Below, piece by piece: positions 881-38,649 of a stretch of 42,385 nucleotides of DNA. The notes beneath the pieces were generated by a model. That model was not told the DNA's origin and ran no database searches. It saw only the letters and a list, made by a program, of their open reading frames with translations. Source of the DNA: an uncultured Gammaproteobacteria bacterium (GTDB taxonomy: Bacteria; Patescibacteriota; Patescibacteriia; UBA2196); the NCBI GenBank assembly GCA_964488715.1, contig CAZAVD010000002.1:7093-49477 (forward strand), in the 5' to 3' direction. A program made the position numbers and the translations under genes. Position 1 is the first letter of the stretch. Every line of letters starts with the position of its first letter.

Positions 881-933
881 AGGTTTTTGCGCTTACTAAC
901 ATATAAATTATAGCATAAATATAACTAAAACCC

Positions 934-1039
934 AAAGTTCAAAATCCAAAATCCAAAAAAATATTAAAATTAAAATATTAAATATTTAAAATTTAGTATT
1001 TGATATTTTTTTGAACTTTGAGCTTTGGATTTTGAGCTT
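934..1039. repeat. Imperfect inverted repeat built of 7-nt units (CAAAATC/CAAAGTT) spanning the rsmA stop codon
   Basis: 934-963 AAAGTTCAAAATCCAAAATCCAAAAAAATAT vs reverse complement of 1003-1039; both arms end CAAAAAAATAT; right arm encodes the rsmA C-terminal tail. Confidence 0.45.
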
Positions 1040-1918
1040 ATAAATTAACTTTATCCAATCCTCTATTGATAATTCCTGTGCTCTAACTTTTCTATCTAAC
1101 CCTGCTTGAATTAAAATCTTTTCAGCTTCTAAAGCTGGAATTTTCAACCCTGCTGATAAATTATTTTTCAGCATTTTACGTTTAGCTGAAAAGCCTATCT
1201 TAACTATCTTAAAAAAAGTTTTATAATTTATATTATCATAATTATTTTTTATTTTTAATTTAATAACAGCACTATCAACATCAGGCTCTGGCCAAAAATT
1301 ACTTCTTGATACTTGCGCTACAATTTCACATTCTGCGTAAAATTGGCATAAAACAGATAAAATAGACATTTTGCCAGGCTTGTCCCGTCGCTCGCGAGCG
1401 ACGGGACTGGCAACTATTCTCTCTGCAACTTCTTTTTGAACCATTAAAACCATTAATTCTGGTTTATTTTTTTCTTCATGCAAAAACTTCCACAAAACTG
1501 GACTTGTAATCTGATATGGCAAGTTTGATATTATTTTGTAATCTTGAGTTTGGAATTTGAAATTTGGATTTTTTTTGGAAATTGTATCTTGGAAATTGAA
1601 AATTTTAAGTATATCATCATTGATTATTTCTATTTTTTTATTTTTATATTTTGTTAATTGAATTTTGAGTCTTGAATAAAGTTTCTTATCTTTTTCTACA
1701 ACAACTAAATTATCTGTATATTTTAATAATTCTTGAGTTAAAACTCCAAACCCTGGTCCAATTTCTAATATATTATCTTTCTCTGATAACTCCCCTGCTT
1801 TAACAATTTTATTTAATATATTTTTATTAATTAAAAAATTCTGACCTAGTTTTTTGCTAGGCCTAATATCTAATTTTTTACAAAGATTTTTGATTATATT
1901 GATATTAGTTAACTGCAT
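986..1918 (-). CDS. rsmA: 16S rRNA (adenine1518/1519-N6)-dimethyltransferase RsmA/KsgA
   Basis: GQNFL, SAM motif EIGPGFGVLT, NLPYQITSP. ORF-track N-terminus (1919-1960) overlaps the tRNA-like gene, so start placed at ATG 1918 (MQLTNINIIKNL). Confidence 0.9.
   Translation of the reverse strand: MQLTNINIIKNLCKKLDIRPSKKLGQNFLINKNILNKIVKAGELSEKDNILEIGPGFGVLTQELLKYTDNLVVVEKDKKLYSRLKIQLTKYKNKKIEIINDDILKIFNFQDTISKKNPNFKFQTQDYKIISNLPYQITSPVLWKFLHEEKNKPELMVLMVQKEVAERIVASPVARERRDKPGKMSILSVLCQFYAECEIVAQVSRSNFWPEPDVDSAVIKLKIKNNYDNINYKTFFKIVKIGFSAKRKMLKNNLSAGLKIPALEAEKILIQAGLDRKVRAQELSIEDWIKLIYKLKIQSSKFKKISNTKF
1382..1407. repeat. Perfect 26-bp GC-rich palindrome embedded in frame in rsmA
   Basis: GTCCCGTCGCTCGCGAGCGACGGGAC; translated as part of SPVARERRD. 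Confidence 0.9.
1549..1606. repeat. AT-rich heptad-unit element copy inside rsmA
   Basis: TTTGGAATTTGAAATTTGGATTTTTTTTGGAAATTGTATCTTGGAAATTGAAAATTTT; near-full match to reverse complement of intergenic 8772-8822. Confidence 0.8.
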
Positions 1919-1927
1919 AAAATAAAA

Positions 1928-2002
1928 TGGTGGACTTGACGGGAATCGAACCCGCGCCACTGCGTGTCAACGGCAATAATGCTACCATTACACCACAAGC
2001 CC
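1928..2002 (-). tRNA. tRNA-like gene, 75 nt with encoded CCA; isotype unresolved (anticodon arm non-canonical by hand folding)
   Basis: Acceptor GGGCTTG/CAAGTCC with G3:U70, A73, CCA; D arm TGGTGTAATGGTAGCA; T arm GCGGG-TTCGATT-CCCGT. Confidence 0.5.
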
Positions 2003-2849: not shown

Positions 2850-4049
2850 TTATCTATTTGCCAGATAAAATTCTTCTTTAGAAATTAGATTTATAAAAAC
2901 AGAAACCACTGCGCCTAATATAAAAATCCAAACAATATTAATATTTAATGCTAATAAAATTAAAGCTAAAATTACCATAATAATTCTACCCCAGGTTAAA
3001 GCTGTTTCGCGCATAATAGTAAATTCATCAACATAATGTCCTTCATCAGCTGCAATTTCATACATTAAAGCATCAAATGGCGTACGCATTAATATGCCAG
3101 TAAAGTTATGATAAATCCCAACAAGAAAAATATGCAAACCTGATTCAATAATAGCCTTAAAAATCCAACCCAAACTATACAAAATGCTACCAGTACGCAT
3201 TAACTTTTTCTTATCAAACTTATCTGTTGCTTCACCAACAATATATCTAATCACGCATGAGACCAAAACAACTGCTGCAGAAATTAAACCTACTTGCATA
3301 TATTTTCCATCTAATAAGATAAAAATAAAAATTGGCCAGATTAAACAACCAATATAGTTTTGAAAACCATCAGCCATATATGCTAAATTAGTTTTAATAT
3401 GCTGACCATCAAAAAACTGTTTAAAAGTCTCAAAATATCCAAAACTATATTTTTCCCTTGTATGTGGAACAAAAAATAATGGGAAAATAGAAATAAATAA
3501 AACAACACTAGCTAATATATATAAAACAGAAAAACCAAATTTAGAAATAATAAAAGCAGAAAAAATTGGCAATAAAATTCCAATTAATGAAACAATAATA
3601 GCTAAAAAACTTATCTGTCGACCGCGATGATGTTTGTTGATAAATCGCGCAAAATCAACATGATATGGAATCCAGAAAAAAACTCTAAAAGTTGTTCCAA
3701 AAAAGATTAAACTTACAATTAATGGCCAGATTATTTCATTAGCTTGAGCTAGAAAATAAAAAATTAAAAAATAAACAATCAACAATAAATTGCCGATTAT
3801 CATAAAAAAATGCAAACTTTTGTATTTCATTATTTTAGCCCACAAAGGCATTGCTAAAATATAAAATAAATTTAAAGCACCATAAAAAATTAAAGCAAAT
3901 TTTAAACTCCCGCTTAAAGTATAAACAAAAATTGGACCAAACATTCCAATTATACTTACCCCTATATCACGGATAATTTTACCCATATATAGACTTCGCA
4001 AACCTAATGATAATTTTTCCATTTTTTGAATTTTAGAAAATATATTCAT
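2850..4049 (-). CDS. Polytopic membrane transporter, MFS-like (tentative)
   Basis: 399 aa, hydrophobic helices throughout; 1-nt gap to tsaC, 4-nt overlap with upstream HD gene. Confidence 0.6.
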   Translation of the reverse strand: MNIFSKIQKMEKLSLGLRSLYMGKIIRDIGVSIIGMFGPIFVYTLSGSLKFALIFYGALNLFYILAMPLWAKIMKYKSLHFFMIIGNLLLIVYFLIFYFLAQANEIIWPLIVSLIFFGTTFRVFFWIPYHVDFARFINKHHRGRQISFLAIIVSLIGILLPIFSAFIISKFGFSVLYILASVVLFISIFPLFFVPHTREKYSFGYFETFKQFFDGQHIKTNLAYMADGFQNYIGCLIWPIFIFILLDGKYMQVGLISAAVVLVSCVIRYIVGEATDKFDKKKLMRTGSILYSLGWIFKAIIESGLHIFLVGIYHNFTGILMRTPFDALMYEIAADEGHYVDEFTIMRETALTWGRIIMVILALILLALNINIVWIFILGAVVSVFINLISKEEFYLANR

Positions 4050-4636
4050 ATTTTAGAAGAAATCTCTAAATTTAAAAATTTATTTTTGTTTTTTGTTACA
4101 GCATTTAAAAATAATGGAACTAAAATTTTACTCACAAGCCTCCAATATAAAGATTTTTTTGCTAAATTCTTTGCATTATCTATTCTTCTAGAACTTATTC
4201 CATCTAAAAAATCAGCATCTTGAATTATTTTATTATACAAATTTCTCTTTCCATTTCTGTATCTAAAACTCATTAAAACATCATGATATAAAACTATATT
4301 TATAATAATTTTTAATTCACTTTTTTCTATTTCAACTTGTTTAAAATATTTTTTAATAAATTTAACACTTCTGCGTGCTTCTAAAAAATATTGAAATGGA
4401 CTTGCTTTATAAAAAGCATAGCTAATATCATGCCATGCGCAAGCTAGCCTTAAAATATTATTATTTATATTACTTGTCCCACTATAAACGGGATTATTTT
4501 CTAGTAATAATTTTTTAATTTTAAAAGCATTTTCTTCTACTCTTTGAATATGCGACCAATCATGATTCAAATCTTTAGTCTGTTGCATTAATTCTTTTGC
4601 TTTATTATATAAAAAATCAAATTGTTCTTGTGTCAT
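4046..4636 (-). CDS. HD-domain phosphohydrolase family protein
   Basis: DWSHIQRVE and CAWHDISY (H...HD signature). Confidence 0.7.
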   Translation of the reverse strand: MTQEQFDFLYNKAKELMQQTKDLNHDWSHIQRVEENAFKIKKLLLENNPVYSGTSNINNNILRLACAWHDISYAFYKASPFQYFLEARRSVKFIKKYFKQVEIEKSELKIIINIVLYHDVLMSFRYRNGKRNLYNKIIQDADFLDGISSRRIDNAKNLAKKSLYWRLVSKILVPLFLNAVTKNKNKFLNLEISSKI

Positions 4637-4695
4637 AAAATAATTATAGCATGAAAATCAAAAACTCGCCGAATCAGCGAATTAAATTAAAATCT

Positions 4696-4730
4696 GTTCC
4701 GAACTTTTAAGGCCGCTGGGAGTTCGGAAC
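4696..4730. repeat. Hairpin GTTCCGAACT-N15-AGTTCGGAAC
   Basis: 10-bp stem; related to the stem of the hairpin at 4766-4804 (GTTYCGAAC). Confidence 0.6.
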
Positions 4731-4765
4731 TTTTTAAGAAATTAAAATCTCTAGACTTGTAAAAA

Positions 4766-4804
4766 GTTTCGAACAGTCCGGCATACGCCGGCCAAGTTCG
4801 AAAC
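4766..4804 (-). terminator. leuS terminator hairpin
   Basis: GTTTCGAAC...CCGGC-ATAC-GCCGG...GTTCGAAAC; on minus strand followed by TTTTTAC, 5 nt after the leuS stop. Confidence 0.6.
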
Positions 4805-4809
4805 AGAAC

Positions 4810-7269
4810 CTAAACAACAATACTAATTAATTTATTTTTAATAAAAATAATTTTTTTAGGTGTTTTATTATCTAGCCATTTTTGAATTTTTTCAGAATCT
4901 AAAACTACTTTTTTAGCTTCATCTTCAGAAATATTTGCATTTACTAAAATTTTATCTCTAACTTTTCCATTCACTTGAACTACTAACTCTATTTCATCAG
5001 CTTGAATCAAGCTTTCATCATATTCTGGCCACTTTTCTTTGGCAAGTGCTTGATCATTGCCAAGCAAGTGCCATAATTCCTCTGAAATGTGTGGGGCAAA
5101 TGGAGATAATAATAAAATTAAATTTTTATAAATTTCTTTAGAAATATTTTCTTGTTTTTCTAGATTATTTACTAAAATCATCATTTGTGAAATTGCTGTG
5201 TTAAATTTCATTTCTTCAATATCTTCAGTAACTTTTTTAATCGTCTGGTGCATCAAGATATCAAGTTTTGATTTTTGACTTGCAATTTTAACTTTTAAAT
5301 TTTGACTTTTAACTTTTTTTTGTAAATTCCAAACTTTATCCAAAAATCTTTTTACCCCAATTATTCCCTTGTCGCTCCAGGATCCACCATCTTCAAACGG
5401 AGCTAAAAATAAAACATAAGTTCTAAAAACATCTGCTCCATATTTTTTAATATAATCATCCGGAGTGATTGAACTTCCTTTTGATTTTGACATTTTTGTT
5501 CCATCTTCAGCTAAAATCATTCCTTGATGAGTTAATTTTATAAATGGCTCATCAAAATTTATTAATTTTTGATCATGTAAAACTTTTGTGATAAATCTTG
5601 CATACAATAAATGCATAACAGCATGTTCTGCTCCCCCACAATATTGATCAACTGGTAACCACTTATCTACTAAATTTTTATCAAATGCTTTGTCATTTAA
5701 ATCTGGATTTATAAATCTTAAAAAATACCAAGATGAGCACACAAAAGTATCCATTGTTTCTGTACTGCGTTTGGCATCTATTCCACATTTAGGACATTTA
5801 GTATTAACAAAATTTTTAGATCTAGCAAGCGGCGATTCACCCTCATCAGTTGGTTTAAAATCTTCTAATTCAGGCAATTGTACTGGCAAATTTTCATCTA
5901 AAACTTCACCGCATTTTTCACAATAAATAATTGGAATTGGCGCGCCCCAATATCTTTGTCTAGAAATTAGCCAATCGCGCAGCTTATAATTAACAGCTTT
6001 TTTGCCTAATTTATTCTCTTCAAGCCAATCACTAATCTTATTAATTGCATCTTTGGGCTTTGAATTATCTAAAAAATCAGAATTAACCATTTTTCCTGAA
6101 TCTATTTCTGTAAAAGCCTCTTTATCAACATCACCACCTTTAATAACTTCAATAATTTCTAAGTTATATTTCTTAGCAAATTCCCAATCTCTTTCATCAT
6201 GAGCTGGTACAGCCATAATTGCGCCTGTTCCATAATTCATCATCACATAATCTGCAACAAAAATTGGAATTGGTTTGTTATTTACGGGATTAATTGCCTG
6301 AACACCTTTTAATTCAACTCCGGTTTTATTTTTATTTAAATCTCCTCTTTCTAAATCAGATTTTTTACTAGCTTTTTGGATATATTTTTTTACTTCTTGG
6401 AAATTGGAAATTGTATCTTGGAACTTGCTGATAAGCTGATGTTCTGGCGCAATAACCATAAAAGTTGCGCCAAACAAAGTATCAGGTCGTGTAGTAAATA
6501 CTTCAAGTTTAAGGGATCCCTCCGCTCCACTCACTCGTTCCTCACTCGTTCCTGTCGGGATGACAGAAAAAAAGACATTTGCTCCCACAGACTTGCCAAT
6601 CCAATTCTTCTGCATTGTAATTGTTTTTTTAGGCCAATTAATTTTATTATGATCTTGTAATAACTTATCAGCATAATCTGTAATTTTAAAAAACCATTGT
6701 TTTAAATTTTTCTGAACTACTTCTGAATCACATCTTTCACATTTTCCAGAAACAACCTGTTCATTTGCCAATACAGTTTTACAAGAAGGGCACCAATTAA
6801 CTGGGGCTTCTGCTTGATAAGCTAAACCAGCTTTGTATAAAACAGAAAAAATCCATTGTGTCCATTTATAATATTCTGGAGAAGATGTATCAATTTCCTT
6901 TTCCCAATCATACATTAAACCTAATTCCCTAAGTTGCTGTTTTGAATATTCAATATTTTTACTTGTACTTTCAGCTGGATGAACACCTGTCTTAATTGCA
7001 TAATTTTCTGCTGGCAAACCAAACGCATCTGCTCCCATTGGCTGAAAAACATTAAAACCTTGCATTTTTTTGTATCTGCCAAACACATCTGAACCAGTAA
7101 AATTATACCCATGCCCAATATGAATTTTATCGCCAGAAGGATAATAAAACATAACTAAATTATAAAATTTAGTTTTTAATTCATTGTCTAAATCGCAAAA
7201 ATTAGTCTTATTGTCTTCCCAATACTTTTGCCATTTTTTTTCAATTATTTTGTGATTATATTCTTGCAT
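4810..7269 (-). CDS. leuS: Leucine--tRNA ligase
   Basis: YPSGDKIHIGHGYNF (HIGH), VFTTRPDTLFG, KMSKSKGS (KMSKS), 819 aa. Confidence 0.95.
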   Translation of the reverse strand: MQEYNHKIIEKKWQKYWEDNKTNFCDLDNELKTKFYNLVMFYYPSGDKIHIGHGYNFTGSDVFGRYKKMQGFNVFQPMGADAFGLPAENYAIKTGVHPAESTSKNIEYSKQQLRELGLMYDWEKEIDTSSPEYYKWTQWIFSVLYKAGLAYQAEAPVNWCPSCKTVLANEQVVSGKCERCDSEVVQKNLKQWFFKITDYADKLLQDHNKINWPKKTITMQKNWIGKSVGANVFFSVIPTGTSEERVSGAEGSLKLEVFTTRPDTLFGATFMVIAPEHQLISKFQDTISNFQEVKKYIQKASKKSDLERGDLNKNKTGVELKGVQAINPVNNKPIPIFVADYVMMNYGTGAIMAVPAHDERDWEFAKKYNLEIIEVIKGGDVDKEAFTEIDSGKMVNSDFLDNSKPKDAINKISDWLEENKLGKKAVNYKLRDWLISRQRYWGAPIPIIYCEKCGEVLDENLPVQLPELEDFKPTDEGESPLARSKNFVNTKCPKCGIDAKRSTETMDTFVCSSWYFLRFINPDLNDKAFDKNLVDKWLPVDQYCGGAEHAVMHLLYARFITKVLHDQKLINFDEPFIKLTHQGMILAEDGTKMSKSKGSSITPDDYIKKYGADVFRTYVLFLAPFEDGGSWSDKGIIGVKRFLDKVWNLQKKVKSQNLKVKIASQKSKLDILMHQTIKKVTEDIEEMKFNTAISQMMILVNNLEKQENISKEIYKNLILLLSPFAPHISEELWHLLGNDQALAKEKWPEYDESLIQADEIELVVQVNGKVRDKILVNANISEDEAKKVVLDSEKIQKWLDNKTPKKIIFIKNKLISIVV
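6396..6427. repeat. AT-rich heptad-unit element copy inside leuS
   Basis: CTTGGAAATTGGAAATTGTATCTTGGAACTTG; 18-nt core GGAAATTGTATCTTGGAA at 6406-6423, translated FQDTIS. Confidence 0.85.
6514..6564 (-). repeat. Long-form GTCATCC...GGGATCC element in frame in leuS
   Basis: Minus strand GTCATCCCGACAGGAACGAGTGAGGAACGAGTGAGTGGAGCGGAGGGATCC (51 nt, 17 codons); tandem 11-mer GGAACGAGTGA x2; encodes VIPTGTSEERVSGAEGS. Confidence 0.85.
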
Positions 7270-7381
7270 AACTTTACTTTATCCTATTTTACCTAATTTG
7301 ACAACTATGCTAAACTATAAAGCAAGATAAGAATATTATTAAAAGCATATAAAACATAGCTTAAAACAATATTTAATTATT

Positions 7382-8713
7382 TTGCTCTCTTCTCTGCTAC
7401 GCAGTGGGGTTTTTTTATTTAAAAAAATTAGCCAATTATTTGTGTGGCTAATACACCCAATTAACAAAATATTTTACTTTGTTTTTAAAAAAATAATCCT
7501 GCCAATATATAATTTAGTTTATTTTTTTAAGAAGAAACTTCAATCTGAAAAAGAAAATAGTTTAGATAATAAAATCATTTTACTTTTAGCTAATAAATAT
7601 TTAATTTACACATTGGCTGTTATTTTGTCAGCTGGAATTTTAATTAATAATTTCACAATTTCAGGCGCAGCTGCTGAAGATTTAGGTAAAAAAAGTTTAT
7701 TATACAAAATAGCACAAGGCAGTGAGTTTGAAGAAATTATTGAAGAAAGAAGCGCGATTATTGAAGAAAATATTGATAAAAAATCAAAACCAACAACTTC
7801 TTCTGAAACATCCAAAACCATTAGTTTAAATATTGAAAAAACAACTTTAACTCGCAGTGAAAAACCACGGGAAATTGATACATCAAATTTACAAGAAACA
7901 ACTGTGGCTGAAGGTTTGGCGGCTGAAACAATTTCCAAAACTGGATCCATTACTACTCTGTCAGTACCAAAACCTAAATCTGAAATTACAGAATATATTG
8001 TAGAATCTGGTGATACAATTTCAAACATTGCTAAAAAATTCCAAATTTCAATTAATACAATTTTATGGGCAAACGATTTAAGCGGGTTAAGTATTATTCG
8101 TCCAAATGACAAACTAACTATTCCACCAACCAGCGGTGTAATTCATAAAGTTAAAAAAGGTGATACTATTTCCGCTATTGCTAAGAAATATAACATTGAA
8201 CAAAATGCTATTTTAAATTTTAATCAGTTGGTTAATAATGATCAATTATCAATTGGCCAAGTTTTAATTGTGCCAGGTGGTGAAATTAAACAAATTTACC
8301 GTAGAACAACAAGTGGTTTTGCATCAGTCTTTAAACCATCTTCATCACAAAAAAAAGCTCACGGTTTTATTTGGCCAACTGTGTCACGTCGTATTACTCA
8401 ATATTATCATTGGCGTCATCATGCCCTTGATATTGGTGGTAAAACTGGTTCACCACTTTATGCTTCAATGTCTGGAAAAATTACAAAAGCTGGCTGGGGA
8501 CGCGGTTATGGTTATCATGTTGTTATTGATCATGGTGGTGGCAAAAAAACTCTTTACGCTCATATGTCAAAAATTTATGTTCAACGCGGAGATCAAGTTA
8601 CACAAGGATCCGTTATTGGCGCTTTAGGTTCAACTGGATGGTCAACTGGCCCGCATTTACATTTTGAAATTACAATTAATGGAACCAAAGTAAATCCATT
8701 GAGTTATCTTTAA
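7382..8713 (+). CDS. Secreted LysM-LysM-M23 peptidoglycan endopeptidase
   Basis: Two LysM repeats (YIVESGDTISNIAKKF..., HKVKKGDTISAIAKKY...), M23 motifs HHALDIGG and GPHLHFEI; TTG start from track, exact start uncertain. Confidence 0.85.
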   Translation: MLSSLLRSGVFLFKKISQLFVWLIHPINKIFYFVFKKIILPIYNLVYFFKKKLQSEKENSLDNKIILLLANKYLIYTLAVILSAGILINNFTISGAAAEDLGKKSLLYKIAQGSEFEEIIEERSAIIEENIDKKSKPTTSSETSKTISLNIEKTTLTRSEKPREIDTSNLQETTVAEGLAAETISKTGSITTLSVPKPKSEITEYIVESGDTISNIAKKFQISINTILWANDLSGLSIIRPNDKLTIPPTSGVIHKVKKGDTISAIAKKYNIEQNAILNFNQLVNNDQLSIGQVLIVPGGEIKQIYRRTTSGFASVFKPSSSQKKAHGFIWPTVSRRITQYYHWRHHALDIGGKTGSPLYASMSGKITKAGWGRGYGYHVVIDHGGGKKTLYAHMSKIYVQRGDQVTQGSVIGALGSTGWSTGPHLHFEITINGTKVNPLSYL

Positions 8714-8715
8714 AT

Positions 8716-8762
8716 GGTAGTCATCCTGAGCGACCTTTAGGATCGTTAGGAGCCCAAGGATC
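8716..8762 (+). repeat. Long-form GTCATCC...AAGGATC element
   Basis: GGTAGTCATCCTGAGCGACCTTTAGGATCGTTAGGAGCCCAAGGATC; near-identical to 24527-24572; begins 2 nt after the M23 stop. Confidence 0.9.
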
Positions 8763-8771
8763 TTATTGTAA

Positions 8772-8822
8772 AATTTCCAATTTCCAAGATACGATTTCCA
8801 AATAAATTTCAAATTCCAAAAT
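8772..8822 (-). repeat. AT-rich heptad-unit element, intergenic copy
   Basis: Reverse complement ATTTTGGAATTTGAAATTTATTTGGAAATCGTATCTTGGAAATTGGAAATT aligns with rsmA 1549-1606. Confidence 0.85.
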
Positions 8823-8826
8823 AAAA

Positions 8827-8861
8827 AATCCGCAGTGAAAATCTACTGCGGATTTTGTTTT
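8827..8861 (+). terminator. Rho-independent terminator, possibly bidirectional
   Basis: AATCCGCAGT-GAAAATCT-ACTGCGGATT then TTTGTTTT; A-run upstream. Confidence 0.75.
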
Positions 8862-8879
8862 GACGCGTTAAAAATCTTT

Positions 8880-9038
8880 TCAGAAAATAGTTTCTGTGAC
8901 TAATTCTGCAGATTCATTGCAATCTTTTATAAATTTCTGAGCAACTCCTGGTCGCACATCTTCATCTAGCTCCGCAATATTTTTTGCAGTAAACTTTAGT
9001 TTAACGCGCAACAATTCGTGTTTTTTATTTTTTTGCAA
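8880..9038 (-). CDS. Unannotated 52-aa ORF (TTG start) with strong Shine-Dalgarno
   Basis: AAGGAGGA, 4-nt spacer, TTG; (M)QKNKKHELLRVKLKFTAKNIAELDEDVRPGVAQKFIKDCNESAELVTETIF; TGA at 8882-8880; below the ORF-track size cut-off. Confidence 0.5.
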   Translation of the reverse strand: MQKNKKHELLRVKLKFTAKNIAELDEDVRPGVAQKFIKDCNESAELVTETIF

Positions 9039-9112
9039 AAATCCTCCTTGTTATGTGTTGTGAATTATTTTACCTAACTTTATACTTTATTCACAATATA
9101 GTCAAATTTATC

Positions 9113-9150
9113 TGTCGCCAGATAGGAACGATCGTTCCTATCTGGCGACA
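9113..9150. repeat. Perfect 38-bp palindrome, downstream flank of Cas2-like gene
   Basis: TGTCGCCAGATAGGAACGATCGTTCCTATCTGGCGACA. Confidence 0.95.
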
Positions 9151-9174
9151 AAATTATTTTGTTTTTTAATAAAA

Positions 9175-9729
9175 TTATATAACTTTCTTAGCAATAATAA
9201 ACTTTACAAATTGACTTAAATCACATTTATGAACTAAATGTCTGATTAATTTAAAAGATTGTTCTCTATTGGTTTGAAAAACACTATTTTGAAGATAATC
9301 AAAACCTAAACCATAAAGCGATTTTCTAAAAAGGTTTCTTGCTCTTTTTAATCTTTCTGGTACATCAAAAATAACTATATAAATTTCATTACTTTTTTTC
9401 TTTTTAGAACGCTTCATTTCCAGAGGATAAGAAATTAATTTTAACCAACCTTTTTTAGTTAACATTAATCTTTTTTTCTTGTCTTCTATTATAAGATCAC
9501 TTTTTTTTAATTTAGTAATCATTTGACTAATTCTTCTTTTTTCTTTTATTTCTTCTCTTTTTTCTTCATTTTTCACTTGTCTACTTTTATAAAGGTCAAA
9601 CAAATTAGGTCTATAAATATATTCTCTAAAATCAATCAATCCGCCAACTGCTCCGCCTATTATTTGTAAAACTTCTTTGGTTAACGAAGGTTTAAAAAGC
9701 TCTTTTTTATTATTATTTTTTGTTTTCAT
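9175..9729 (-). CDS. wHTH + Cas2-like (PaaX-family-like) protein, paralogue A
   Basis: IYIVIFDVPERLKRARNLFRKSLYGLGFDYLQNSVF resembles the Cas2 / PaaX middle-domain signature; LIIEDKKKRLMLTKKGW is wHTH-like; paralogue at 24714-25232. Confidence 0.6.
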   Translation of the reverse strand: MKTKNNNKKELFKPSLTKEVLQIIGGAVGGLIDFREYIYRPNLFDLYKSRQVKNEEKREEIKEKRRISQMITKLKKSDLIIEDKKKRLMLTKKGWLKLISYPLEMKRSKKKKSNEIYIVIFDVPERLKRARNLFRKSLYGLGFDYLQNSVFQTNREQSFKLIRHLVHKCDLSQFVKFIIAKKVI

Positions 9730-9741
9730 AAACTTTTTTAG

Positions 9742-9779
9742 TGTAGCGTAATAGGAACGATCGTTCCTATTACGCTACA
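9742..9779. repeat. Perfect 38-bp palindrome, upstream flank of Cas2-like gene
   Basis: TGTAGCGTAATAGGAACGATCGTTCCTATTACGCTACA; shares the 20-bp core with 9113-9150. Confidence 0.95.
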
Positions 9780-9821
9780 ATATTTTAATTAAAATATTAA
9801 TAATGTCTAATAAAACTAATT

Positions 9822-17493: not shown

Positions 17494-18165
17494 ATGAATA
17501 TAAACTGGTTTGGACAATCATTTTTCAAAATCACAACAAAAAACTCATCTGGAGAAGATGTTGTTATTGCTATTGACCCATTTGATAAATCTTATGGTTT
17601 AAAAGTGCCAACAAAATTTGGCGCAGATATTGTTTTAATTTCTCATGATCATAAAGATCATAGTAATATAAATGCAGTTAAAGGCACTAATTTATCACCA
17701 GAACCTTTTGTTATTTCCGGTCCAGGAGAATATGAAATTAAAGGAGTAATGATTTATGGAATTCCAGCTTTTCATGATGACAAACAAGGCGAAGATCGTG
17801 GAGAAATAACAATGTTTTTAATTGAAACAGAAGGAGTTTGGTTAGCGCATTTAAGCGATTTAGGACAAAAATCTTTAGAAAATGGTCAGTTAGAACAATT
17901 ACAATCAGTTGATGTTTTAATGATTCCAGTTGGCGGAACATTTACTATTGATGCCAAAGAAGCTTCAAAAATAATTTCGCAAGTTGAACCAAGAGTTATT
18001 ATCCCAATGCACTATAATCTGCCTGGACTTAAATTAGATCTTGATAGTGTAGATAAATTTATTAAAGAAGAAGGAATAAATCCAGAAGAAGTTGAAGGTA
18101 AATTAAAAATTACTAAAAAAGACTTGCCAAATGAAGATACTAAACTTTTTATTTTAAAAAGTTAA
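17494..18165 (+). CDS. MBL-fold metal-dependent hydrolase, UPF0173-like
   Basis: WFGQSFFKI, IAIDPFD, LISHDHKDH (HxHxDH). Confidence 0.8.
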   Translation: MNINWFGQSFFKITTKNSSGEDVVIAIDPFDKSYGLKVPTKFGADIVLISHDHKDHSNINAVKGTNLSPEPFVISGPGEYEIKGVMIYGIPAFHDDKQGEDRGEITMFLIETEGVWLAHLSDLGQKSLENGQLEQLQSVDVLMIPVGGTFTIDAKEASKIISQVEPRVIIPMHYNLPGLKLDLDSVDKFIKEEGINPEEVEGKLKITKKDLPNEDTKLFILKS

Positions 18166-18170
18166 TTCCT

Positions 18171-18277
18171 AAATTACAAATTACAATTTCTAATAAATTT
18201 CTAAATTAATAATTTTTTAAATTGGGCATTAGACATTCTTAATTTCATTGGAAATTAGAAATTATAATTTAGAAATT
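18171..18277. repeat. AT-rich heptad-unit inverted-repeat (MITE-like) element, copy 2
   Basis: Left arm AAATTACAAATTACAATTTCTAAT (23/24 to 105-128); right arm ATTAGAAATTATAATTTAGAAATT; inner TTAGACATT and ATTGGAAATTAGAAATT shared with copy 1. Confidence 0.65.
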
Positions 18278-18578
18278 GAATAATATTATGTTCAATAAAT
18301 CTAAACAAAACATACAAATATACATTATATTCGCCTTAATTATCCTAGTGATCCTGGGCTTTTGGTATTATAGTTTAAAAATAAATTTAAAAAATGGTTT
18401 AAACACAGAAAATAATCGCTCTGGTTTTACTTTATCAGAATTAAAACAAGAAATTTCTGACATTCTTTCAAAATCTCCGTTAACAAATAAACAAGAAATA
18501 AAAAAAGATAATATAAATAAAGACGAGCAATTAGATAAACTGGCTGATGAGTTAGTTGATAAATTAAAAAATAAATAA
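18276..18578 (+). CDS. Small single-TM protein
   Basis: IYIIFALIILVILGFWYY helix; TTG at 18276 lies inside the repeat element, so ATG at 18288 is the more likely start. Confidence 0.5.
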   Translation: MNNIMFNKSKQNIQIYIIFALIILVILGFWYYSLKINLKNGLNTENNRSGFTLSELKQEISDILSKSPLTNKQEIKKDNINKDEQLDKLADELVDKLKNK

Positions 18579-23852: not shown

Positions 23853-24518
23853 TTAAAATAAAAAATCTTTCATCCTCTCATACAAATCTTTAGTTGCAAC
23901 AACATCTCTCATACAATATTCAGCTATTTTTTTATATTCTTTATTTTTAAATAAATTATTTACTTCAAGTCCTGAAACACCTTCATCTTTTGGATTTTTT
24001 ATTCCAAATGTTTGGCACAAACTTTCCAAAGAAAGTTTTCTAAATGCTCCATAAAAACTTAATTGATCCATTATATCTAAATGTTCTTTTGTTGAATAGC
24101 GATAAGGCATTAAATTTTTTGTTGGTTTTAAATTATGATAAATTGAGCGGATAATAATAAAAGGGCAATCAAAGCCTCTTCCATTAAAAGAAATTATTTG
24201 TTCAAAAAATCTAATATCTTGCCAAAAACTTTCTAAAATTCCTTTTTCATCTTTAACAATATATTCTATATTATTTTTTGTATAATTTTCTATATTATTT
24301 TTTGGTGCTTGAAAATATACTTTGCCTTGCCCTGAATCTGAATTTAACATTGCAATAGCAACTACTTCTCCGCTAATTGGCAATAAACCAGTGCGTGATA
24401 AAATATCCTCACGCTCTTTTTCATCTTTAGCGTTTTTAATTAAATATTCTTTTATTATTGGATCAAGTTCATCTTTTTCTTGACCACAAGTTTCAATATC
24501 AAATATTAATTTAGGCAT
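23853..24518 (-). CDS. RNase H-fold 3'-5' exonuclease related to the PolB exonuclease domain
   Basis: LIFDIETCG (ExoI DxE), SFNGRGFDCPFI (ExoII), YCMRDVVATKDLY (ExoIII). Confidence 0.75.
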   Translation of the reverse strand: MPKLIFDIETCGQEKDELDPIIKEYLIKNAKDEKEREDILSRTGLLPISGEVVAIAMLNSDSGQGKVYFQAPKNNIENYTKNNIEYIVKDEKGILESFWQDIRFFEQIISFNGRGFDCPFIIIRSIYHNLKPTKNLMPYRYSTKEHLDIMDQLSFYGAFRKLSLESLCQTFGIKNPKDEGVSGLEVNNLFKNKEYKKIAEYCMRDVVATKDLYERMKDFLF

Positions 24519-24526
24519 ATTTTTAA

Positions 24527-24572
24527 GGTAGTCATCCTGAGCGACCTTTAGGATTTTAGGAGCCGAAGGATC
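24527..24572 (+). repeat. Long-form GTCATCC...AAGGATC element
   Basis: GGTAGTCATCCTGAGCGACCTTTAGGATTTTAGGAGCCGAAGGATC; lies 8 nt upstream of the exonuclease ATG on the opposite strand. Confidence 0.9.
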
Positions 24573-34857: not shown

Positions 34858-34887
34858 CCTGTCATCCCTGCGAAGGCAGGGATCCAG
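34858..34887 (+). repeat. Short-form hairpin repeat CCTGTCATCC-stem-loop-GGATCCAG
   Basis: CCTGTCATCCCTGCGAAGGCAGGGATCCAG. Confidence 0.9.
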
Positions 34888-34976
34888 TTAATGGATTTAA
34901 ATACCCCAATAATACATCAACTTTCCAAAGATTATCACAGAAACCAGGTTTAATTAATTTTAATAAAGTATAAATA

Positions 34977-35006
34977 CTGGATTCCCGCTTTCGCGGGAAT
35001 GACAGG
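34977..35006 (-). repeat. Short-form hairpin repeat
   Basis: Minus strand CCTGTCATTCCCGCGAAAGCGGGAATCCAG. Confidence 0.9.
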
Positions 35007-35011
35007 AAGAG

Positions 35012-35041
35012 CTGGACTCCTGCCTACGCAGGAGTGACAGG
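35012..35041 (-). repeat. Short-form hairpin repeat, 4 nt after the GIY-YIG stop
   Basis: Minus strand CCTGTCACTCCTGCGTAGGCAGGAGTCCAG. Confidence 0.9.
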
Positions 35042-35045
35042 AAAA

Positions 35046-35345
35046 TCAAAACAATTCATCATACAAATCATCCCAATCAGGATTTTCTTCTTCAATTAAT
35101 TTAATCTTCCATTGTCTTTTCCATTTTTTCATTTGTTTTTCTCTTGTTATTGCATCATTTACATAATAATATGTTTCATAATAAACTAATTTATCTACAT
35201 TATATTCTTTAGTAAATCCTTCAATTTCTTTACTTTTATGTTCTTCCACTCTACATGTCAAATCTGAAGTCATTCCAATGTATAAAGTGCCATTTCTTTT
35301 ACTAGCTAGGATATAGACAAAATAGTATTTATCAAATTTTGCCAT
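35046..35345 (-). CDS. Small stand-alone GIY-YIG nuclease, YhbQ/UPF0213-like
   Basis: YFVYILASKRNGTLYIGMTSDLTCRVEEHK, FTKEYNVDKLVYYE, REKQMKKWKRQWKIKLIEEENPDWDDL. Confidence 0.85.
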   Translation of the reverse strand: MAKFDKYYFVYILASKRNGTLYIGMTSDLTCRVEEHKSKEIEGFTKEYNVDKLVYYETYYYVNDAITREKQMKKWKRQWKIKLIEEENPDWDDLYDELF

Positions 35346-35380: not shown

Positions 35381-35408
35381 GGATCCCTGCCTACGCAGGG
35401 ATGACAGG
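35381..35408 (-). repeat. Short-form hairpin repeat, 35 nt upstream of the GIY-YIG ATG
   Basis: Minus strand CCTGTCATCCCTGCGTAGGCAGGGATCC. Confidence 0.9.
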
Positions 35409-35485
35409 TGGTATAAATTTATTATTTTATAAAGTATTAAATGAATATTATCGCTGAAGTCAGAGACTGGAGCCAACATACACGT

Positions 35486-38649
<3,164 letters not shown>

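Follow-up and report, generated by a model that had tools for sequence, protein, structure and literature searches.

The stretch of DNA analysed here, 42,385 nt of contig CAZAVD010000002.1 (hereafter, the window), carries an 18-nt core, GGAAATTGTATCTTGGAA, that is read as the same peptide, FQDTIS, in the three genes rsmA, leuS and ligA. Within an interspersed non-coding repeat of Patescibacteria (Parcubacteria group), this core is the part with the highest conservation, and FQDTIS is neither a chance product nor a conserved peptide. The repeat is probably a selfish element of Patescibacteria, similar both to the Rickettsia palindromic elements (RPE) and to the intervening sequences (IVS) of rRNA genes, whose genic copies have been filtered for a tolerable, hydrophilic peptide in the antisense orientation; copies in essential genes are predicted to encode a harmless stretch of protein (…NFQDTISK…). 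No match for the sequence or the peptide, and no account of such a repeat in bacteria of the candidate phyla radiation (CPR), was found in the full text of the literature, and the family was apparently undescribed before.

The core was found as an exact match at three places on the plus strand of the window (1577-1594, 6406-6423 and 35903-35920) and, with a single mismatch (T>C), at an intergenic position on the minus strand (8782-8799). These four positions had been listed in an initial annotation made from the letters of the window, and both the search and a comparison with shuffled sequences bore them out: dinucleotide shuffles yielded a mean of 0.17 core matches with up to three mismatches, and none of 100 shuffles reached four. 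The three host genes are all encoded on the minus strand, as confirmed by Pfam matches and translations: rsmA (986-1918), coding for the 16S rRNA dimethyltransferase RsmA/KsgA (protein P0241, 310 aa; Pfam RrnaAD, E 6e-61), leuS (4810-7269; Pfam LeuS) and ligA (35486-37486; Pfam LigA). The core is translated as F-Q-D-T-I-S at residues 109-114 of RsmA, 283-288 of LeuS and 523-528 of LigA. It is flanked by 7-nt units (TTGGAAA and variants), and the rsmA and intergenic copies match over about 55 nt, one additional 7-nt unit aside; the heptad flanks and this match had been noticed from the outset, as had the absence of stop codons in all six frames of the core, which also held. A tRNA-Ser(TGA) gene (1928-2002, minus strand) lies directly upstream of rsmA, and the mechanical open reading frame (ORF; 986-1960) extends into it; the true start of rsmA is the ATG at 1918.

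A 63-position nhmmer model was built from only 86 intergenic copies of other genomes, with the window excluded, and it recovered exactly four copies in the window. The rsmA copy (1546-1603, plus strand) is full-length and antisense to its gene, covering model positions 5-62 (58/63) with an E value of ~1e-12. The leuS copy (6397-6430, plus strand, E 4e-8), also antisense, lies in the CP1 editing domain just past the APEH motif and encodes ISKFQDTISNFQ; a tryptic digest of LeuS would release the peptide FQDTISNFQEVK from this segment. The antisense ligA copy (35892-35942, plus strand; profile match at 35892-35929, E 7e-9) lies in the HhH domain, and the fourth is a solo copy between convergent genes (8773-8827, minus strand, E 3e-11). 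The same model gave no match in 59 kb from three relatives together with the 5.2 kb of the same genome that adjoin the window, compared to four matches in 42 kb for the window; therefore, the abundance of the repeat is lineage-specific. The G+C content of the window is 27-33%, Parcubacteria-group/Kuenenbacteria-like Patescibacteria have the proteins most similar to those it encodes, and the source genome was detected in marine and seawater metagenomes. An Rfam scan of the window gave only tRNA above threshold.

When one genome per species was scanned, 54 loci with the core were obtained. About half were singletons from unrelated phyla with unrelated flanks, which are chance matches and could be used as a control. 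The remaining loci belonged to 14 Patescibacteria species genomes (Kuenenbacteria, Moraniibacteriota, Paceibacter and unclassified), with one to seven exact copies in each, and had common flanks of the form ...tttgRRatttgRRatttATTT-GGAAATTGTATCTTGGAA-ATTGGAAATT. A metagenome scan added 92 loci, and after deduplication the census comprised 134 unique copies, of which about 110 were of the element type, most of them intergenic and right beside the start or stop of a gene; gene calls were ORF-based. With some 110 copies of one short sequence across the lineage and four in the 42-kb window, the sequence behaves as a dispersed repeat. No exact match to it was found in viral contigs.

A single arm of the element measures about 35-95 nt (34-95 nt for the genic copies) and consists of a variable run of TTGNNNN units (TTGGAAA, TTGAAAT, TTGTAAT, TTGAGAT and others), followed by ATTTATTT and, at the outer end, by the terminal signature TTATTTGGAAATTGTATCTTGGAAATTG, composed of TTGGAAA-TTGTATC-TTGGAAA-TT and holding the core. 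In a mismatch-tolerant scan the signature took the form TTGGAAA-TTGT[A/T/C]TC-TTGGAAA, with TTGTATC, TTGTTTC or TTGTCTC as centre unit; TTGTATC is at times duplicated, and duplicated units were seen in L021 and L044. Shuffled controls gave no such match, even with up to five mismatches.

Element-type copies within long, Pfam-complete genes amounted to 14, at 10 independent sites: rsmA, leuS (in the window, in L011 and in L149, where a GC hairpin is inserted into the core), ligA, a MiaB-like radical-SAM gene, two sites in pheT, fmt, gatA and a GT4 glycosyltransferase gene. All 10 sites are antisense, and the core is read as FQDTIS at seven of them, as SKIQF at two and as PRYNF at one, with one of the pheT sites being read in different frames in L035 and L144. 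By comparison, the chance 18-mers of unrelated phyla fell in every frame and in both orientations. Apparent sense copies in genes (L008, L060, L084, L114, L116 and L025) were artefacts of open frames reaching upstream of the true start. Arrays without a core followed a similar trend, with 19 antisense and one to three sense cases in genes.

Stop codons were considered as the cause of this bias and rejected. Among 87 canonical intergenic copies of 70 nt, each of the six frames was open in 25-38, and the FQDTIS frame was the least often open, owing to a TAA in AAATAAAT that the genic copies have lost; in the rsmA copy it is altered to AAAAAAAAT. Against this open-frame null, the binomial probability was ~0.0014 for 10 antisense sites out of 10 and ~0.004 for at least seven of 10 in the FQDTIS frame. 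The initial annotation was thus right in stating that the shared frame and orientation were not forced, and the random placement that it had named as evidence to the contrary was seen only among the chance 18-mers. The mean Kyte-Doolittle hydropathy of the antisense frames ranges from -0.4 to -1.0 and that of the sense frames from 0 to +1.0; the former are hydrophilic (N, F, Q, D, T, I, S and K), whereas the latter are rich in W, C, L, I and V. On sequence grounds, this contrast fits a filter based on tolerance by the protein.

The sites occupied within proteins were compared with those of their orthologues. Relative to E. coli LigA (2OWO), the LigA of the window has 10 additional aa, located exactly at the copy, in agreement with the estimate given in the initial annotation, and HHH_2 covers 74 residues there compared to the 64 positions of the profile. 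This site is an indel hot spot among 120 orthologues: about half of them have no insert, and others show differing peptides derived from heptads or from GC hairpins, such as ISNFQFPISNKNF and IRNKKLEIRNK. The LigA gene of L148 has the fourfold repeat (TTGTATC)x4 at this site. The closest LigA orthologues, at 70-72% identity, lack FQDTIS. The RsmA site is likewise a hot spot: FQDTIS is also present in an orthologue of 74% identity, FQFPIS stands in its place at 67%, and orthologues at 63% have no insert; the segment is missing from the orthologues P0247-9. Mapping onto structures, proposed in the initial annotation for all three proteins, was carried through for RsmA with an AF2 model, in which FQDTISKK forms a short helix (109-116) and the remainder of the segment (117-126) is a loop between beta3 and the NLPY strand, with pLDDT values of 86-91. 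Net insertions relative to the Pfam profiles were of about 35 aa in the MiaB-like radical-SAM domain and about 15 aa in the B3_4 domain of PheT.

In LeuS the segment has a constant length across orthologues and is heptad-derived in most of them, so that the case is one of replacement without net insertion, as had been suspected. FQDTIS is patchy there, being present in the window lineage, L011 and L149 and absent from orthologues with 76-79% identity. Between the leuS genes of the window and L011, whose proteins are 56% identical, the element shows ~96% nucleotide identity compared to 62% gene-wide, and 16 of 17 synonymous third positions are identical within it compared to a fraction of 0.50-0.56 elsewhere (conserved codons). 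Full canonical arms were found inside genes in L129, L099 and L029. As judged from these alignments, the peptide is not ancestral, its absence from the closest LigA and LeuS orthologues (70-79% identity) answering the objection that it might be an ancient coincidence. The homogeneity of the copies, the reoccupied sites and the full canonical arms appear to point to copying or conversion from other copies; vertical descent and convergence do not fit them.

The arrangement of neighbouring copies revealed the architecture of the complete element. When cores of opposite orientation lay less than 700 nt apart, all of the 14 inverted pairs listed, some of which are duplicate contigs, had the minus-strand core before the plus-strand one, with cores facing outward and arrays inward; two more close pairs were in tandem. 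The spacing was either 113-127 nt between cores or about 270-480 nt. The shorter pairs have no gene between their arms and form a long hairpin (z = -5.6 for the gene-less pair of L024). In pairs about 440-480 nt apart, the arms surround a gene of ~117-121 aa for a PF05635 "23S rRNA intervening-sequence protein", as in L061 and L094 (E 6e-20 and 6e-15). In 1 Mb of loci, 10 of 13 PF05635 genes had an exact core within 65 nt, and several of the other three were accompanied by variant cores or inverted heptad arrays; most copies of the element contain no ORF. The whole cassette of L061 shows a 24-bp perfect terminal stem formed by its two cores (fold z = -3.9). The complete element consists of two inverted arms with their cores outward, the ends of which, as RNA, pair into a perfect stem of at least 24 bp. 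A core-less version of this paired architecture is present in the window itself. It comprises an array in the sequence coding for the C-terminal tail of RsmA (KLKIQSSKFKK; 1011-1038, plus strand; TTGAACT TTGAGCT TTGGATT TTGAGCT) and its inverted partner in the spacer downstream of the gene (929-956, minus strand; TTGGATT TTGGATT TTGAACT TTGGGTT), which together form a long hairpin (z = -5.45 for the fold of 915-1050). A further core-less antisense array of heptad units lies within rsmA at 1651-1678 (plus strand; SRLKIQLTK). The present analysis goes beyond the initial annotation in that the family is widespread in Patescibacteria, its architecture is IVS-like and palindromic, and what recurs at the hot spots is the heptad arrays and not the 18-mer alone.

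One gene-less copy, in L121, is located within a 23S rRNA gene, between the conserved blocks GGTGGGAGGC and ATACCACCC; rRNA holds none of the four window copies and hardly any of the others. This CPR 23S rRNA gene (L121 4379-8415) is 4037 nt long compared to the 2925 positions of the model, the element (~7540-7680) replaces the segment between both blocks, and a 165-aa LAGLIDADG-type intron ORF (6824-7321) adjoins it. In terms of E. coli 23S rRNA, the insertion region is presumably that of the L1 stalk.

Such an arrangement has a parallel in known rRNA insertions. In the Coxiella 23S rRNA IVS, a terminal stem of 28 bp that RNase III cleaves is combined with a strain-variable number of tandem heptamers and an S23p ORF (PMC4990558), and PF05635 ORFs have been described in CPR rRNA insertions (PMC11270868). 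The element shares with the S23p-type IVS of Coxiella and Leptospira a perfect terminal stem of ~24-28 bp, variable heptamer tandems between stem and ORF, an ORF for a four-helix-bundle protein of the S23p family and, in L121, a gene-less copy within 23S rRNA. It differs from them in its heptamer (the TTGGAAA family compared to GACAGAT) and in that nearly all copies are in intergenic spacers or protein genes, many as solo arms or gene-less pairs. By analogy, its structure resembles an S23p-type rRNA IVS escaped from rRNA, and, judging from the stem, paired copies could be RNase III substrates. It is conceivable, though rather doubtful, that the PF05635 cassette with its flanking signature is a novel type of mobile element in its autonomous form. 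Its pentameric four-helix-bundle protein, a relative of the Avd accessory protein of diversity-generating retroelements (DGR), might then recognise the heptad arrays or the 28-nt end and help to bring solo arms and gene-less pairs, by copying or conversion, to new sites, rRNA and protein genes included, a role that we regard as equally speculative. If true, this would provide a function for a large orphan protein family and an origin for rRNA intervening sequences.

Under the preferred reading of a selfish repeat, solo arms and pairs would spread to the spacers between genes and into protein-coding sequences. The best-supported route would be exchange between heptad arrays, by ectopic recombination or by gene conversion, a trans-acting factor being the alternative, and slippage of units would resize the arrays. 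Selection would then keep genic copies only when they are in frame, have lost the TAA, encode a hydrophilic antisense peptide and lie in tolerant peripheral segments of the protein. Such a filter would account for the shared FQDTIS reading in rsmA, leuS and ligA.

Several observations weigh against this proposal. Neither a mobilising enzyme nor a target-site duplication came to light, nor did a pair of filled and empty sites at nucleotide resolution: no consistent duplication appeared at the boundaries inspected, the long form carries PF05635 and not a transposase (with no systematic search for transposases), and L147, the only close relative, at 99.5% identity, has every copy in place. There is little or no length change in rsmA and leuS, with a net gain in RsmA of just ~5 aa relative to B. 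subtilis KsgA, so the term insertion may not apply literally at these sites. The orientation rule is not absolute for arrays, as a sense core-less array occupies the leuS site of L151 (IENWKLKIENW). Every locus except the window was chosen for having the core, so the densities elsewhere are lower bounds or biased. Finally, perfect conservation of 28 nt across candidate phyla could mean a host function of the DNA or RNA motif. In four runs, the Logan contigs consisted of fragmented pieces that break at the rsmA copy, and no words of this genome were found in metatranscriptomes of the same studies. As a separate observation, nearly all differences between the window and L147 are concentrated in two tracts, 4846-5200 (3' end of leuS) and 3375-3525, which suggests that a more divergent strain has recently contributed sequence by homologous recombination.

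A host function is the strongest of the alternatives, although an unlikely one. The signature would be an operator, a promoter or UP-like element, a translation leader, or a binding array for nucleoid or S23p proteins, maintained by selection, and the genic copies would be functional internal sites, for example antisense promoters. Exact conservation of the 28-nt signature in many genomes and the nucleotide-level conservation in leuS are in line with this, and so is the placement of intergenic copies: 28 of the 39 with sense orientation have the end of the core 11-25 nt upstream of the ATG of a same-strand gene. The genes so preceded include dnaJ in two genomes and a tRNA, and such downstream genes are heterogeneous, which speaks against this alternative. 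Spacers between tandem genes hold 23 sense and 13 antisense copies; 14 of 25 copies have the core end 4-24 nt past the stop of a gene on the opposite strand, and about 40% of intergenic copies face away from any gene start and abut a stop codon. A minus-strand terminator hairpin, a terminator-like stem at 8856-8825 (tail TTATTTTGGA), has its foot where the intergenic copy of the window begins, and its T-tract enters the arrays of that copy. A promoter scan gave no sigma-70-like match inside the intergenic copy, and in the rsmA region such matches were no commoner than in shuffles. Ordinary TTGACA-17-TATAAT promoters are in use elsewhere in the window. Because of these canonical promoters and the lack of a match in the intergenic copy, the element was not read as a promoter; the centre unit also varies at the A of the would-be -10/-11 (TTGTATC, TTGTTTC, TTGTCTC), and the copies that abut stop codons have the opposite orientation. 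Zero copies in the 59 kb of relatives argue equally against a host function, and neither the outward pairs around the PF05635 gene nor the 23S rRNA copy suit an operator. In these compact genomes, the element merely fills most of the spacer.

Slippage in place is a still weaker explanation, and we consider it improbable. Arrays would arise locally from AT-rich 7-nt microsatellites, and the shared 18-mer would be convergent, with no dispersed element at all. Unit number does vary, as seen in the (TTGTATC)x4 of the L148 LigA site and in the duplicated units of L021 and L044; three units make 21 nt, or 7 aa, and so keep the frame, and the arrays at a given protein site differ from lineage to lineage. 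However, slippage cannot yield the same non-repetitive 28-nt order (ATTTATTT, TTGGAAA, TTGTATC, TTGGAAA) at more than 100 places in many genomes. Nor does it account for the match of the rsmA copy to a 63-position model of foreign intergenic copies, or for the full canonical arm in L129, L099 and L029.

Much less credible is a role of the core as a DNA-uptake signal, like the USS (uptake signal sequence) of Haemophilus or the DUS (DNA uptake sequence) of Neisseria, accumulating by biased uptake and recombination. Biased uptake would also give same-length coding replacements, as seen in leuS and rsmA, as well as frame preferences and inverted pairs; USS and DUS likewise fall within coding sequence, where they favour certain frames and protein positions under weak constraint, and form inverted pairs after genes. 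Nucleotide-level identity between diverged orthologues, the inverted intergenic pairs and a DprA gene in the relative L151 can be cited in its favour, and CPR bacteria encode competence machinery. The density is nevertheless far too low and too uneven, with four copies in 42 kb, none in 59 kb of relatives and one to seven exact copies in each species genome. For USS and DUS the figure is about one per kb, the density here being 10-100 times lower, and on this ground an uptake signal of that type was rejected. Net insertions of 10-35 aa, a long composite element instead of a 9-12-mer and the association with PF05635 cassettes would also be unexpected for an uptake signal. Coincidence within low-complexity AT-rich coding sequence, for which the low G+C content of the window (29%) and the common AT-rich codons of the peptide could be invoked, is counted as refuted by the shuffle expectation of 0.17 even with three mismatches, the conserved flanks and the E values of 1e-8 to 1e-12 given by the foreign-built model.

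Among known repeats, the closest functional likeness to the proposed selfish element is with RPE. These are reportedly 100-150-bp palindromes, inserted whole (Ogata et al. 2000), and are said to occur in intergenic regions, in RNA genes and in frame in housekeeping or essential genes of a reduced-genome host, where they yield a tolerated surface peptide. The present element is likewise a short, non-autonomous, multicopy repeat of a reduced genome, found in intergenic spacers, in an RNA gene and in frame in essential genes. Its 10 genic sites are in intact conserved genes with full Pfam domain matches, and the insertions relative to orthologues fall in peripheral or variable segments (LigA, RsmA, radical-SAM and B3_4). 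It is unlike RPE in that the genic copies are single, non-palindromic arms of 7-nt units with an invariant 28-nt end, and in its strict antisense bias, its PF05635 cassettes and its Patescibacteria host. Membership in the Rickettsia family proper was rejected on the lack of self-complementarity of the genic single arms and on the host, a separation made by description and not by sequence. By analogy, the element would represent functionally the RPE phenomenon in a new lineage.

Miniature inverted-repeat transposable elements (MITE) and REP-like repeats (Correia/NEMIS, ERIC, BOX and REP/BIME; PMC2229807, PMC10969869) are also small, with inverted terminal repeats and hairpin-forming transcripts in the spacers near gene ends, and include gene-less derivatives of a longer gene-bearing form. 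The outward cores and the 113-127 nt between them agree with the terminal inverted repeats and small size of a MITE. The differences are the heptad minisatellite interior, a long-form gene that is not a known transposase, and the lack of an identified transposase parent or target-site duplication; the element was not taken as a demonstrated MITE, as neither of the last two was found, with no search for transposases having been systematic. Short tandemly repeated repetitive sequences (STRR) of cyanobacteria are heptanucleotide tandem repeats, and HIP1 is tolerated in frame within genes. The element resembles the former in its tandem 7-nt units dispersed in intergenic regions and the latter in its in-frame genic occurrence, but STRR belong to another lineage, have other sequences and lack the conserved non-repetitive end, the inverted-pair architecture and the PF05635 cargo.

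Other repeats were observed in or next to the element. Small GC-rich hairpins (e.g. gcctgcccgcc...ggcaggcgg) are inserted specifically in the heptad element, between or beside TTGGAAA units, and affect intergenic copies as well as those within genes: they were seen in L025 (~4762-4800), L033, L042, L132 and L149 (leuS), and in the LigA proteins P0090 and P0120, the LeuS protein P0227 and the RsmA proteins P0253, P0259 and P0305. Those in the LigA, LeuS and RsmA copies are read as VIASEAKQSR, RGGSASGGQ, PPAGRAG and CHPELVSG, and from its sequence the hairpin looks like a second mobile sequence targeting the heptad element. Within the window, GC-rich hairpin repeats with CTGGAYTCCCGCYTWCGCRGGARTGACAGG (34862-34890, 34978-35043 and 35386-35412; two in tandem and one reversed) occupy the spacers around a 99-aa ORF (35046-35345). 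Two AT-rich spacers (95-223 and 18166-18275) contain inverted, core-less arrays of related 7-nt units (TTAGAAA, TTGTAAT) and a common motif, G(G/A)CATTAGA(C/T)ATT(C/T)TTAATTT(C/T)ATT, upstream of a start codon; folding of the 18160-18290 region is weak (z = -1.8).

A second repeat, GGTAGTCATCCTGAGCGACCTTTAGGAT(CG/T)TTAGGAGCC(C/G)AAGGATCT, is present on the plus strand at 8716-8762, directly past the stop of an M23 peptidase gene and beside the heptad element, and at 24526-24572, directly upstream of a minus-strand gene starting at 24518; a diverged copy is found at the syntenic place in the relative L150 (~5350-5400). In L150, whose LeuS is 79% identical, a DGR (3700-5405) that combines a bAvd gene (PF22296) with a truncated RVT_1 ORF and a stretch resembling a template repeat is syntenic with the window spacer 8714-9174. 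A link to this retroelement was rejected, the bAvd and reverse transcriptase locus being a separate element and the window having no such genes. Two long perfect palindromes with the centre TAGGAACGATCGTTCCTA, ctgtcgccagataggaacgatcgttcctatctggcgacaa (9118-9160) and gtagcgtaataggaacgatcgttcctattacgctac (9745-9785), flank a 184-aa PaaX_M/Cas2-like ORF (9175-9729) and could be operator-like or terminator-like.

Rickettsia provides the best-known cases of selfish repeats within essential protein-coding genes. The repeat family described here would extend the same phenomenon to Patescibacteria, a huge group of ultra-small and mostly uncultivated bacteria, through a structurally different element. 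By its common architecture, it would tie in-frame selfish DNA to the origin and mobility of IVS and to the orphan PF05635 family. The repeat would also account for recurrent indel hot spots and odd low-complexity peptides in the housekeeping proteins of CPR bacteria and for assembly breaks at its sites, and its invariant 28-nt signature may be used as a marker across metagenomes.

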